DNA of 64,000 bases from an uncultured Chlamydiae bacterium (GTDB lineage Bacteria > Chlamydiota > Chlamydiia > Chlamydiales > SM23-39). The stretch is taken from contig CAWHDP010000002.1 in NCBI GenBank assembly GCA_963828125.1, positions 843,619 through 907,618 on the forward strand, written 5' to 3'. Shown piece by piece: positions 26,682 through 30,767 of this stretch. Made by a program: the position numbers and the translations under genes. Under the pieces are notes generated by a model, which worked only from the letters and a program-made list of their open reading frames with translations, was not told the DNA's origin and did not search any database. How positions within the stretch are numbered: position 1 is the stretch's first letter; every line of letters begins with the position of its first letter.

Positions 26682-29600
26682 ATGTCCGCGATGCGCATTA
26701 GTCTCGTTCTTTTTCTTCTGATCAGTCCGCTTTTTTCCGATGAGGAAATTGTGAGAGCGGAGCCTCTTGTTCTAGCTGCAGACGCAAAAGCGTCCAAACA
26801 GCAAGACGGCTACACGATCAATTACAACACTGTATCTTTGATCGAGTACATCCGTTTCGCAAGCAAAATTTGCAAAGTAAATTTTATCTATCAAGAAGAA
26901 GATCTCAATTTTACCGTCACCGTAGTCTCCGATGAGCCAGCCACCGCAGCCAATGTGATGGCGACGCTGATTCAGGTGCTGCGGGTTCACGGCCTCATGC
27001 TTCTAGAACAGGGCAACAATTTGGTCATTCACAAATCGGCCGATGTGAAACAAATGGCAACGCTCGTCACTGAAGAATCCCCAAACGGAACCGCGCCGAT
27101 CGTCACCCGGATCTTCCGCGTCAAAAACACGAAGCCCGCATCGATCGCCGCAATCATTCAGCCCATGATTTCTTCGTCCGCGATTTTAGAGGTGTCGAGT
27201 GAAACGAAACAAATTATTATTACCGACGTCACCGCGAACGTCGATAAAATTGCGGCTCTCATCGAAAATCTAGACTCTCCGCATACGCTCCTGGTCATTA
27301 AAAACTATCAGGCGGCCAATAATTCTCCCGAATTTTTGACCAGCCTGGCCAGTCAAATCATGACCCCGATCGCCCAGGGCAATCCATTCATTTTGGTTCC
27401 GCAAGATTTGGCAGGTGAAATCTTCATCGTCTCGACTCCCGAACTGGCCGACAAGGCGCTGAGCGTCTTTGCCAGCTTGGACAGCACGCCGAAAGTGAAG
27501 ATGGTCAAAGCGCGGCAAGAGGACGTTTTTGTCTATAAAGTGCTCCACAGGCCGGGCGATAAGGTGCTGGCAGATCTCGAAAATATTGCGACCAATCTCA
27601 AGGCCTCCGGCTCTGCAGACGCCGATCTGATCCAAATGATCGAAACTGCAAAATGGAGTCCCGACACCAATTCCATCGTTTTCATCGGATCGAGCGGCTC
27701 GATCGACAAAACCAAAGGGTTCCTGAGTTCTCTCGACCTTCCTCCCGAAGGGGTCGCTATCGCGGAGAAACAATCTTTCTTTATTTATAAGCCCCAATAT
27801 AAAACCGCCGAAGAAATCAGAAAATCCATTCTCGAAATGGCCTCTAATTTACAAGGGGCCAAAGGGGTGAGCCAGGGACTGATCGATACGATTTTGAATT
27901 GCAAAGTCAACTCGTCGACCCATACGATCTCTTTTTCAGGCGAAGAGGGGACCTTTCCCCGAATCAAAGAACTTCTAGCGACGATCGACACAGCTCCCCT
28001 CAAATCGAGTAGAGGGGTGATCCCTGCAAGCACTCAGTTCTATATCTACAAACCGGTCTACCTCAGCGGAGAGGCGCTCTACGCCTCACTCAAAGAATTA
28101 GAAGGAGAGCTCAAATCCGATCAATTGGCCGACCCAGCGCTTCTGAATGCACTAGGGACAATGAAATGGGTCAAATCGACCCGCTCCCTCCTTTTCACAG
28201 GCGATCCCGATTCGCTCAAAAGAATTGAAGGGTTGGTCGCCACTGTCGACGTTCCAACAAAGAGTGAAATCAGCACGTTCTTCCAATACCAGCCAAAATA
28301 TGCCAATGAGCTGAAAACAGAAAATTACCTCCGCCAAATCATTCAGAATTTAAGCAAAAAAGGGGGATCCCCTTCGCTCATCAATACGCTTAAATCGTAT
28401 AAATGGATCCCCGAGTCCAAAAGCTTCATGTTCTACGGCTCTCAGGAAAATTTAAATCAGGTTCAAATGCTCCTTGAGACCTTCGATACTCCTGGCTCCG
28501 CCTCGCAGTCGACTGGATATTTCATTTACAAAGTGCAAAATACCACCGGCGATCTCATAGAAGAAGATCTCGACCTCATAGCGAAAAATATGAAAGCCTC
28601 GGGCATTCAAGAGAGCGGCCTCATCGATTTGATCGAAAAAATCAAATACGTCAAACCGACCAATTCCCTCCTTTTAACCGGCGATGCGCAATCCCTAGAA
28701 GAGGCCAAACAACTCGTCGCTCAGTACGATTATCCCCGGCTGCCTGCAGCCCCTTCATCCAGTCATTTTTTCATTTACAAACCCATCCATCTTCCAGCGG
28801 CCCAACTCGACAAGGCGATCAAGGATCTCAGCGCAAACTTGGAAAGCGCAGGGCTTGCCGATCCCCGTCTCATCAAGACGATCGAAACCTCGAAATATGT
28901 CTCATCGACAAACACCTTTATTTTCACCGGCACCCCCGAGAGCCTGCAGAAAGTGCAAGACCTACTCAAAGACGTCGATATCCCTCCTGCAACCCACGCC
29001 CCCATTCAACACGTCGGGAAAACCACCTTCCTCCTCTATAAGCTAAAAAATGCGAGCGGCGTTCAAATTGTCAGCTCCATTAAAAATATGACCGCCGAGT
29101 TAAAAAAGTCGGGAACCGCCGATAAGGACTTTGTTGCCGCTCTCAGCACCATTAAGTACGTCAAAGAGACGAATTCCCTCTTTTTCACGGGAACCGAAGA
29201 ATCGCTCACGAAAGTGCAGGGACTCGTCGAACAATTCGACGTCACAGGCCTCGCTGGAAAACAAGAGCCCCCCCCGACGACGCCCACAGCCGGCAGCTTT
29301 TACGCCTATAAACCCCAATATGTGGCAGGGCCTGAACTCGAATCGCTCTTGCAACATTTTGCCGAAAATTTAAAGAGCAGCGGACTTGCGGACGCCGAAC
29401 TATTTAAGACGATCGCCTCGATGCGCTGGTCAGATAAGACCCAAACCCTTGTTTTCACCGGAACTCCCAAATCGCTCGATCAAATCAAAGAGATGGTCAA
29501 AGAATTCGACGTCTCTTCCAACGCCCTGGGGACAATGGGAGGCCAAAAAGAGACCTCCATCCAGGCGATCGACAACACGAGCTTTCTCGTCTACAAGCTC

Positions 29601-30767
29601 CAGTTTCACAAAGGCGACGAGATCCAAAACGCCCTCCGGCAAATCGCAAGGGATCTGACCTTAAGCAACGCCCCCGTCAATCAGGGCCTCCTCAATTCGA
29701 TCAATTCCATCCAATGGCTGGAAGTCACCAATTCGATCCTATGTTCCGGCGACCAAGACACCCTCACCCGCCTCCGCGAGTTGATCAAAAACCTCGACGT
29801 CCCCTTAAAACAAGTATTCATCGAAATGCTTGTGATCGAAACGACCCTAAGCAACGCCTTGAATTTTGGCCTCGAATGGGGAGCCAACTATAAATACCGG
29901 GACAAATTCGGCGCCAGCTCTTATAACTCTCAGCCGATCACCTCAGGCAACACCCCAAGTCAATTTCTCACCAACTTCGAGAATTTAACGCCTCCGTCCC
30001 CGCCGACCCCTTACGGCGCCCAAATCCCCATCTCCTCCGGTTTTGATCTCGGCGTCATTGGCGAAGTGATCCGCCATAATGGAGACACCTTCCTCACCCT
30101 CGGCTCGCTCATGTCCGCCCTTCAGACCGACACTGAGGCGAGCATCATCATGACGCCCAAAATCCTCACTCAGGACGGCCACACCTCGACCCTCTTTGAC
30201 GGGAGGAACATCCCCTTTGTCGGCTCCTTTGTACAAAACAACAGCCAAACAACCGTCAACACCTCCAACATTGAATACCGGGACATCGGCCTCAGCCTCA
30301 CCGTCACCCCCGTCCTCGGCAATTCAGACATCGTCACTCTCGATATCAATCTCGACCGGAGCCAAACTCTTGGCGACGTTACGGGCGCCGCGCTCAATTT
30401 CAATGCAGGCTCTGCTCAAGGGATCACCACGAGCAAAACGACCATGCAGACCACAGTCCACGTACCGGACAACAATTTTCTCATCCTCAGCGGCATGGTC
30501 AATAATTCCAATGCGAAAACCAAATCTGGCATCCCATGTCTTGGAGGACTCCCCCTCATTGGCGCCGCCTTTTCGCAAAACGGCGATACGGTGGTGAACT
30601 CCAATATTGTGATTTTTATCCGCCCCCACATCATTAATTCTGTCGATGAAATGCGAAGCCTCACCACGAAAGAGGAGGACTATTTCCGAGATCAATCTGG
30701 AACTCCTTATCTTCAAAAGAACTTCGACGAATCGATGGAGCTGATCAAAACCATCGATGACGAATAG
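26682..30767 (+). CDS. sctC: T3S outer-membrane secretin SctC (CdsC), unusually long (1361 aa)
   Basis: Signal peptide MRISLVLFLLISPLFS. N0-like and N-domain-like modules follow. The C-terminal secretin core runs from ~aa 1042 (VFIEMLVIETTLSNALNFGLEW ... DIGLSLTVTPVL ... GIPCLGGLPLIGAAFS ... IVIFIRPHII). Confidence 0.92.
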   Translation: MSAMRISLVLFLLISPLFSDEEIVRAEPLVLAADAKASKQQDGYTINYNTVSLIEYIRFASKICKVNFIYQEEDLNFTVTVVSDEPATAANVMATLIQVLRVHGLMLLEQGNNLVIHKSADVKQMATLVTEESPNGTAPIVTRIFRVKNTKPASIAAIIQPMISSSAILEVSSETKQIIITDVTANVDKIAALIENLDSPHTLLVIKNYQAANNSPEFLTSLASQIMTPIAQGNPFILVPQDLAGEIFIVSTPELADKALSVFASLDSTPKVKMVKARQEDVFVYKVLHRPGDKVLADLENIATNLKASGSADADLIQMIETAKWSPDTNSIVFIGSSGSIDKTKGFLSSLDLPPEGVAIAEKQSFFIYKPQYKTAEEIRKSILEMASNLQGAKGVSQGLIDTILNCKVNSSTHTISFSGEEGTFPRIKELLATIDTAPLKSSRGVIPASTQFYIYKPVYLSGEALYASLKELEGELKSDQLADPALLNALGTMKWVKSTRSLLFTGDPDSLKRIEGLVATVDVPTKSEISTFFQYQPKYANELKTENYLRQIIQNLSKKGGSPSLINTLKSYKWIPESKSFMFYGSQENLNQVQMLLETFDTPGSASQSTGYFIYKVQNTTGDLIEEDLDLIAKNMKASGIQESGLIDLIEKIKYVKPTNSLLLTGDAQSLEEAKQLVAQYDYPRLPAAPSSSHFFIYKPIHLPAAQLDKAIKDLSANLESAGLADPRLIKTIETSKYVSSTNTFIFTGTPESLQKVQDLLKDVDIPPATHAPIQHVGKTTFLLYKLKNASGVQIVSSIKNMTAELKKSGTADKDFVAALSTIKYVKETNSLFFTGTEESLTKVQGLVEQFDVTGLAGKQEPPPTTPTAGSFYAYKPQYVAGPELESLLQHFAENLKSSGLADAELFKTIASMRWSDKTQTLVFTGTPKSLDQIKEMVKEFDVSSNALGTMGGQKETSIQAIDNTSFLVYKLQFHKGDEIQNALRQIARDLTLSNAPVNQGLLNSINSIQWLEVTNSILCSGDQDTLTRLRELIKNLDVPLKQVFIEMLVIETTLSNALNFGLEWGANYKYRDKFGASSYNSQPITSGNTPSQFLTNFENLTPPSPPTPYGAQIPISSGFDLGVIGEVIRHNGDTFLTLGSLMSALQTDTEASIIMTPKILTQDGHTSTLFDGRNIPFVGSFVQNNSQTTVNTSNIEYRDIGLSLTVTPVLGNSDIVTLDINLDRSQTLGDVTGAALNFNAGSAQGITTSKTTMQTTVHVPDNNFLILSGMVNNSNAKTKSGIPCLGGLPLIGAAFSQNGDTVVNSNIVIFIRPHIINSVDEMRSLTTKEEDYFRDQSGTPYLQKNFDESMELIKTIDDE
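27525..29804 (+). repeat. Nine tandem, diverged ~80-95-aa protein modules inside sctC (protein-level repeat, secretin N-domain-like)
   Basis: Module starts at aa 282, 366, 453, 533, 613, 696, 783, 873 and 968 (nt 27525, 27777, 28038, 28278, 28518, 28767, 29028, 29298, 29583). Each follows F-x-[IVY]-YK-x6-10-L-x8-L-K-x-SG-x4-L-x9-[KW/KY]-x5-[NS]-x-[LIV]-x-F-x-G-x3-SL-x9-D-[VI]-P. Confidence 0.85.

Follow-up and report, generated by a model that had tools for sequence, protein, structure and literature searches.

Secretins assemble as 12-15-mer rings in the outer membrane, and the number of periplasmic ring domains usually assumed for them is three to four; N0 and N1 contact the ring in the inner membrane, and the secretin core lies in the outer membrane. 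To our knowledge, N-domains stack axially as rings in all solved secretins. We analyzed a 64,000-nucleotide stretch of DNA from an uncultured Chlamydiae bacterium (assembly GCA_963828125.1, contig CAWHDP010000002.1, positions 843,619 to 907,618; hereafter the window), which encodes an injectisome (type III secretion system, T3SS). Its outer-membrane secretin gene, sctC/cdsC (26682-30767, plus strand, 1361 amino acids (aa)), carries nine tandem N-domain modules between N2 and the pore. Together with N0, N1 and N2 this gives the total of about twelve periplasmic domains that an initial annotation of the same DNA had counted. Secretins of this family, which belong to an injectisome, have roughly two to four times as many ring domains as the highest number on record. 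Proteins of this kind are public and generically annotated, and the searchable open-access literature yielded no account of tandem N3 arrays in chlamydial SctC, nor of their co-scaling with SctP.

The secretins closest to window SctC by sequence and fold are GspD/XcpQ/PulD of type II secretion systems (T2SS) and pIV of phage f1. The N0-N2 region matches XcpQ/GspD crystal structures, the modules match the N3 domain of pIV, GspD and EpsD, and the core gives a match at E 1e-38. However, GspD has a single N3 and four periplasmic domains, and the window gene lies in a T3SS cluster and not in a T2SS operon. The characterized injectisome secretins InvG, YscC, MxiD and EscC have the same role in the machine, judged by synteny, and Foldseek matches the periplasmic domains of InvG and EscC. 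They differ in being only 560-610 aa long with N0, N1 and N3 only (PMC4682100) and in forming a separate secretin lineage (PMC3459982); the corresponding family model, TIGR02516, scores 111.6 bits with window SctC against a cutoff of 238.45.

As proposed for window SctC, the periplasmic portion of Thermus thermophilus PilQ consists of N-domain rings in a long stack. PilQ has six of these (N0-N5) in a complex of ~35 nm that spans a wide periplasm, and the paper describing it calls six rings an 'unusual number' and the complex among the largest characterized. Window SctC has twelve such domains and its relatives up to 26, whereas PilQ belongs to a different secretin subfamily, serves a type IV pilus and DNA uptake, and works with no ruler protein. 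Within the Chlamydiota, CdsC of C. trachomatis (CT674) is 921 aa long and combines the classical N-domains with a unique hydrophilic domain of 250 residues at its N-terminus (PMC4682100).

The nine N3-type modules of window SctC

The domain order of SctC is signal peptide, N0, N1, N2, nine modules and secretin core (the NCBI entry starts at Met4, giving 1358 aa). N0 (26817-27023, plus strand, aa 46-114) was recognized by PF21305 (31.6 bits, cutoff 27) and by a Foldseek match to XcpQ/GspD N0-N2 crystal structures (E 2e-10). In the AlphaFold model, N1 (about aa 141-198) and N2 (about aa 205-267), which together occupy 27102-27482 on the plus strand, show the canonical β-α-β-β-α order, with a predicted local distance difference test (pLDDT) score of about 78-87. 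A sequence search of the PDB also aligned aa 38-268 with GspD/XcpQ N0-N2. The pore domain (30117-30635, plus strand, aa 1146-1318) matches PF00263 at E 2.9e-35 (121.8 bits, cutoff 27.5), and the core matches GspD cryo-EM chains down to E 5.5e-38. PF03958 (Secretin_N) finds nine significant stretches, with 217.6 bits and a whole-protein E of 1.6e-65. Window SctC thus has what defines the secretin superfamily, i.e., a PF00263 pore and an N0 followed by ring-building N-domains (PF21305, PF03958).

The array had been placed at 27525-29804, corresponding to aa 282-1041 of the open reading frame (ORF), with modules starting at aa 282, 366, 453, 533, 613, 696, 783, 873 and 968. These starts held, and they delimit segments of 78-95 aa. 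The common skeleton that the initial annotation had read from the sequence is likewise present and in register, as F-x-Y-K, a long helix, [SG-x-AD], K-[WY], TNS-[LIF]-x-F-x-G and L-x-x-x-D-[VI]-P. The resemblance to the secretin N-domain fold that it had suggested was confirmed by Pfam (PF03958) and by the fold predicted with AlphaFold and compared with Foldseek.

In a leave-one-out test, each module was scored against a hidden Markov model (HMM) built from the other eight, giving 57-91 bits and E-values of 1e-13 to 2e-24 (Z=1e6). All modules lie on the plus strand, and each has the predicted N3-type, ring-building fold in the AlphaFold model. Module 1 (27525-27776, aa 282-365) scored 73.7 bits and module 2 (27777-28037, aa 366-452) 63.5 bits. 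Modules 3 (28038-28277, aa 453-532; 85.4 bits) and 4 (28278-28517, aa 533-612; 56.9 bits) are of the two types at which copy number varies in relatives, module 4 being the least conserved of the nine. They are followed by module 5 (28518-28766, aa 613-695; 69.0 bits), module 6 (28767-29027, aa 696-782; 90.8 bits), module 7 (29028-29297, aa 783-872; 82.7 bits) and module 8 (29298-29582, aa 873-967; 81.6 bits). The pore-proximal module 9 (29583-29816, aa 968-1045) is the most conserved, with many invariant columns and the best Secretin_N stretch (970-1044), and is equivalent to the canonical N3.

Pairwise amino acid identity among the nine modules is 20-41% (mean 30%). No DNA-level tandem repeat was found across the module region; residual DNA similarity is confined to the TNSL-F-TG motif, where it reaches 60-83% at a spacing of 249-288 nucleotides (nt) or about twice that (480 and 513 nt). 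The low identity and the lack of a tandem repeat in the DNA indicate that the modules stem from ancient duplications and have since diverged, and that they are no product of mis-assembly. Modules 1-9 have also kept their orthology position by position across 44 aligned nine-module orthologues (54-77% identity), each module having many invariant residues.

AlphaFold was run on aa 21-1050 (1030 aa) as a single chain, with the 44 nine-module orthologues as alignment. Every module was predicted to fold as β, long α, short inserted α', β, β, α, with pLDDT of about 70-87, and the modules are joined by linkers of some 4-13 residues with pLDDT below 50. In a Foldseek search of the PDB the model retrieved secretin periplasmic domains (XcpQ/GspD N0-N2, PulD, InvG) with probability 1.0. 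Module 6 modeled alone (pLDDT 88.8, predicted template modeling score (pTM) 0.70) had phage f1 pIV, GspD of enteropathogenic Escherichia coli, EpsD, PilQ and Vibrio cholerae GspD as top PDB matches. Superposition gave 2.1-3.9 Å over ~72 columns at probability 0.97-1.0, with weak structural E-values (0.04-0.13), as is usual for an 87-residue query. The structural match of module 6 probably is to N3, since several of the targets, such as 5w68 and 7ofh, seem to hold little beyond N3 and core.

The HMM comparison points to the same domain. Non-chlamydial secretins each have one match to the module HMM, directly before the pore, at 39-89 bits. Window N1 gives a partial match of 6 bits and window N2 none. 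Because secretins outside the Chlamydiota match only before the pore and N1 and N2 do not, we regard the nine modules as N3 paralogues.

Two SctC architectures at one locus

The array is widespread in a large uncultured clade of Chlamydiota with hundreds of orthologues. The 120 best homologues have 1115-1856 aa and 6-15 modules, nine being the modal count (48 proteins, with ten in 29 and eight in 17). A scan of one genome per GTDB species gave 175 relatives. The best 80 all come from Chlamydiota metagenome-assembled genomes (MAGs), including Rhabdochlamydiaceae, Anoxychlamydiales and 'Parachlamydiales', and the complete genes among them have 6-14 modules; a Rhabdochlamydia MAG, for example, has seven. 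Among representatives at 50% identity the range widens to 4 modules (945 aa) at one end and 23 modules (2368 aa) at the other. The nine-module array of the initial annotation is therefore real, but it is no outlier: window SctC is a typical member of a clade with variable copy number and a mode of nine.

Scoring each module against position-specific HMMs showed where the number changes. Close relatives keep the order 1-2-3-4-5-6-7-8-9, and the general architecture is 1-2-[3/4]n-5-6-7-8-9. Types 1-2 and 5-9 are constant, and most changes in length fall at types 3 and 4, as in 12356789, 1233456789 and 123344444456789. Identity between neighboring modules reaches 96% in some long relatives (P0123, P0134, P0173), which points to ongoing amplification; in P0123 the modules at aa 384-1059 are spaced by exactly 75 aa. 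Modules as similar as those of P0123 indicate very recent tandem amplification, or possibly repeat mis-assembly in metagenomic contigs. Several bins titled Verrucomicrobia or Verrucomicrobiota (L017, L026, L031) have a complete chlamydia-type sctN-O-P-Q-C cluster with 7-14 modules; they are probably mislabeled or contaminated.

A second SctC architecture, type B (the array-bearing one being type A), occupies the same locus in the genomes examined. It comprises ~120 proteins of 806-1273 aa, the named sources being Neochlamydia, Waddliaceae and Parachlamydiaceae. Type B proteins start with a hydrophilic N-terminal extension of roughly 150-340 aa, followed by N0 (at about aa 160-340), N1, N2, an insert of ~130 aa with four 'DxNGNW' repeats, one N3 and the pore. 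A single N3 module was found in 119 of the 120 proteins. The layout agrees with what has been published on C. trachomatis CdsC, the comparison being with that description. CdsC and type B proteins share with window SctC the gene position after sctQ (with or without pkn5) and before a ~315-aa gene and yidD, as well as a GspD-type core, N0, N1, N2 and a pore-proximal N3, and both kinds are unusually long for injectisome secretins (PMC4682100). Unlike them, window SctC is without the N-terminal extension, its N0 beginning at aa 46, and N2 is followed by nine N3-type modules. In the Neochlamydia type B locus, sctQ is followed by pkn5, several ORFs, the secretin, a 318-aa gene and yidD. The W..D.NGNW repeats of type B (aa ~400-520 in P0326; also P0325 and P0249) sit at the N2/N3 junction, which is also the position of the type A array, and this junction seems to be an insertion hot spot.

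The initial annotation had taken CdsC to have an N-terminal extension and no nine-fold array, in agreement with the published description (PMC4682100) and with the single module in nearly all type B proteins. It had also raised the possibility that all Chlamydiota orthologues already carry the same nine modules. The counts found are 1 or 4-23, and a uniform set of nine was therefore rejected. The array is no established trait of characterized CdsC; it is the norm for a large uncultured clade. The existence of two architectures also matters for annotation, since many of these proteins are labeled GspD or 'secretin N-terminal domain-containing protein'.

SctP length and the proposed reach of the injectisome

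We consider the following scenario. A GspD-type secretin was recruited to the chlamydial type III system, as in other Chlamydiota, and its pore-proximal N3 domain was multiplied in tandem to give nine diverged copies. In the oligomer the modules may stack as successive rings of ~4 nm each. N0/N1 are placed at the inner-membrane ring and the core in the outer membrane, so that the distance separating them has to be spanned by the modules, and the periplasmic tube would be ~30 nm longer than in ordinary injectisomes. The secretin would then have a length of some 55-60 nm in the window and exceed 100 nm in 23-module relatives. The needle, which starts at the inner membrane, would thread the longer tube and would have been lengthened to match; because it is anchored at the inner membrane, it must be longer if the modules stack. 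Across the family, the putative ruler SctP, encoded two genes upstream, has ~23-25 more residues in its proline-rich center per added module, and module number changes accordion-like as modules of types 3 and 4 are duplicated in tandem or deleted.

The SctP-like gene of the window (24037-25458, plus strand, 473 aa) lies between sctO and sctQ. Its product has a conserved N-terminus of ~110 aa, a Pro/Ala/Gly-rich center of 214 aa and a conserved C-terminal domain of 150 aa (C-domain). The position in sctO-sctP-sctQ and the sequence of conserved N-terminus, variable extended center and conserved C-domain are those of the YscP/FliK rulers. Gene order, architecture and weak FliK matches suggest a needle-length ruler. 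It is unlike YscP/FliK in having no significant sequence match to characterized rulers other than these weak FliK matches, and in that its lengths form a natural series, which follows a change in the secretin, not in the host surface.

SctP length increases with module number. By ordinary least squares over 40 loci the correlation is r=0.63 (p=1e-5), with 24 aa per module. The relation is also found with phylogenetically independent contrasts on a neighbor-joining tree of SctC core and SctQ (r=0.72, p=1.9e-7, slope 24.6), with 32 of the 35 informative contrasts of the same sign. The length variation lies upstream of the C-domain, which is conserved (51% mean column identity) and does not co-vary with module number at its ~115-150 aa. 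In the 26 of 40 loci where the ~110-aa N-terminal region can be placed, its length is likewise independent of module number, and it is the Pro/Ala/Gly/Glu/Lys-rich center that changes in length. At the same loci, the lengths of SctQ, SctO, SctN, SctD and the product of the gene downstream of sctC show no correlation with module number. SctD length, considered as an alternative co-varying partner, was rejected (rho -0.03).

Three lineages outside the fitted set had SctP lengths close to those predicted: 670 aa at 21 modules (predicted 704), 616 aa at 17 (608) and 320 aa at 4 (297). These extremes fall within 0.6 standard deviations of the in-sample line, and the long proteins carry the conserved SctP C-domain. 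All 43 points together give a slope of 22.7±2.8 aa per module (r=0.78). The 23- and 18-module proteins stand outside the comparison, being at contig ends or having sctC apart from sctQ. The same 21-, 4- and 17-module lineages have an extra gene of 194-245 aa between sctP and sctQ (L085 6346-7017, L087 6507-7091, L090 6363-7100), in which the SctP C-terminal domain occurs a second time (28-98 bits). In addition, their sctQ and sctC are separated by a pkn5-type kinase; both features are absent from the window.

The slope can be compared with the size of a ring. The Yersinia ruler spans ~0.19 nm per residue. With this value as the upper limit, 22.7-24.6 aa at 0.15-0.19 nm per residue corresponds to 3.4-4.7 nm per module, the slope over all 43 points giving 3.4-4.3 nm. 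From the length of Thermus PilQ, allowing ~10 nm for the pore domain, a ring was estimated at ~4 nm. The agreement of the two numbers favors axial stacking. In Yersinia, the number of YscP residues is linear with needle length (PMC2835726); if the scenario holds, the chlamydial loci would be a natural, phylogenetically replicated version of that ruler experiment.

Several observations weigh against stacking matched by a ruler. The single-chain model has a pTM of 0.27, so that inter-module and inter-subunit packing is not fixed by it. The scatter of SctP length is large (residual standard deviation ~56 aa), with several loci of 10-11 modules having a short SctP of 324-343 aa and type B Neochlamydia, with one module, lying above the line at 334 aa. 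The SctP center and the modules are both repeat or low-complexity expansions, and a shared tendency to expand may account for some of the correlation. The SctP-like gene has no curated family in Pfam or NCBIfam, its C-domain profile found no match among PDB sequences at E up to 10, and PF02120 (FliK) matches 5 of 40 orthologues weakly, with a best E of 0.035.

These points bear on the strongest competing explanation, in which the N3-like modules fold back or lie side by side, giving a thicker wall or a flexible scaffold that binds envelope layers, chaperones or the conserved downstream lipoprotein, and in which the SctP correlation is a by-product of repeat or low-complexity expansion. The flexible, low-confidence linkers and unfixed domain positions would suit such an arrangement, as would the scatter and clear outliers of SctP and the repeat-like sequence through which both proteins vary. 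On the other hand, the slope converts to 3.4-4.7 nm per module where PilQ gives ~4 nm per ring, and the relation survives independent contrasts and predicts out-of-sample extremes. Furthermore, five other genes of the locus do not co-vary with module number, and solved secretins stack their N-domains axially. We therefore consider the scaffold unlikely, although it retains a real share of our judgement. The initial annotation had named a longer conduit or a partner scaffold as alternatives; the conduit has gained independent support from the co-scaling of SctP, and the scaffold survives as this minority reading.

Taken as a whole, axial stacking combined with a ruler is the explanation that we favor, with moderate confidence. 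Its most far-reaching form, an 'accordion' injectisome in which 4-23 N3-type rings set a tube of ~35 to >100 nm, SctP co-evolves at 23-25 residues per module and the result is the longest known secretin conduit, leaves us evenly divided. The long conduits presumably are matched to unusually wide or multilayered envelopes. A family of injectisome secretins with 7-26 domains in the periplasm would mean that the geometry assumed for type III machines has to be revised in a whole phylum of intracellular bacteria. With the co-variation of ring number and putative ruler length, evolution itself offers a test of the ruler model for the control of needle length, and module number could serve as a sequence-based predictor of basal-body length, e.g., for Rhabdochlamydia (7) versus Chlamydia or Parachlamydia (1).

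Gene identity and the type III secretion cluster

The identity of the gene as injectisome secretin SctC/CdsC, and that of the modules, is near certain, based on synteny with sctD, sctN, sctO and sctQ and on the Pfam layout. The main competitor, a T2SS GspD, draws on the NCBIfam scores, with TIGR02517 (GspD) reaching 347.9 bits in six stretches and TIGR02516 (SctC) far less, on GspD chains being the top PDB sequence matches, and on the GspD/PulD labels that JGI gives to many homologues. Yet the TIGR02517 score is under its own cutoff (351.35), and a low TIGR02516 score is to be expected of chlamydial SctC, given its recruitment from T2SS-type secretins: in published phylogenies the chlamydial injectisome secretin groups with type II and phage secretins (PMC3459982; PMC4682100). 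Moreover, the gene directly follows sctQ in a complete sctD..N-O-P-Q cluster, an arrangement of sctC next to sctQ that recurs in dozens of loci, and in Neochlamydia the same locus holds a protein labeled SctC. No T2SS gene (gspC/E/F/G association) was found among the larger window ORFs scanned, some window ORFs lying outside the scan. GspD identity, the best NCBIfam match, was rejected as very improbable on the strength of synteny and the published T2SS origin of chlamydial SctC.

Window SctC is 100% identical to an NCBI entry from 'MAG: Chlamydiales bacterium' on a 1.92-Mb contig, where it is named 'secretin N-terminal domain-containing protein', and the identical protein is present in several independent assemblies. 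A mis-assembled repeat or a decaying, non-functional expansion, which the proneness of repeats to mis-assembly and the near-identical adjacent modules of some relatives might suggest, was rejected as having next to no chance of being correct in view of these assemblies, the ~30% identity and absent DNA repeat of the window modules, their positional orthology in 44 orthologues and the confident fold of each.

The cluster upstream of sctC runs on the same strand in the order sctD … sctN-O-P-Q, and sctC begins 128 nt past sctQ. The inner-membrane ring protein gene sctD/cdsD (17473-19362, plus strand, 629 aa) matches PF16697, PF23863, PF22598 and PF23862 as well as TIGR02500 (185.9 bits, cutoff 86), and its product carries the chlamydia-specific periplasmic domains CdsD_PD1, PD2 and C. 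Three small ORFs follow: one with a DUF5398 match, an 82-aa ORF without family match at the expected position of the needle gene, and a tetratricopeptide repeat (TPR) protein. Between this needle-chaperone-like TPR gene and sctN lies a gene for a 214-aa protein (20295-20939, plus strand), whose C-terminal 60 aa are weakly SctI/YscI-like (E 0.003) and which has about twice the usual length of SctI. The ATPase gene sctN (20936-22255, plus strand, 439 aa; PF00006, PF18269) is followed by sctO (23516-24040, plus strand, 174 aa; PF16789, YscO-like, E 8e-44), sctP and sctQ (25459-26553, plus strand, 364 aa; TIGR02551 157.8 bits, cutoff 100.8; PF01052).

Downstream, the sctC stop is overlapped by 11 nt by a conserved gene (30757-31698, plus strand, 313 aa). 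The N-terminus of its product is lipobox-like (LLFAAC) and the C-terminal part has hydrophobic helices; similarity to TPR proteins is weak, and no Pfam or NCBIfam family matches. In nearly all type A loci, and also in type B Neochlamydia, a gene of this type immediately follows sctC and precedes yidD, and the product may be a pilotin-like partner in secretin assembly.

In other loci sctN and sctO are adjacent or have one small gene between them. The window has a gap of 1.26 kb with low GC content (0.42) at this position, in which Rfam found no match. It contains two minus-strand ORFs (22244-22630, 128 aa; 22788-23351, 187 aa), both with a long two-lobed hydrophobic stretch like that of chlamydial inclusion-membrane (Inc) proteins.

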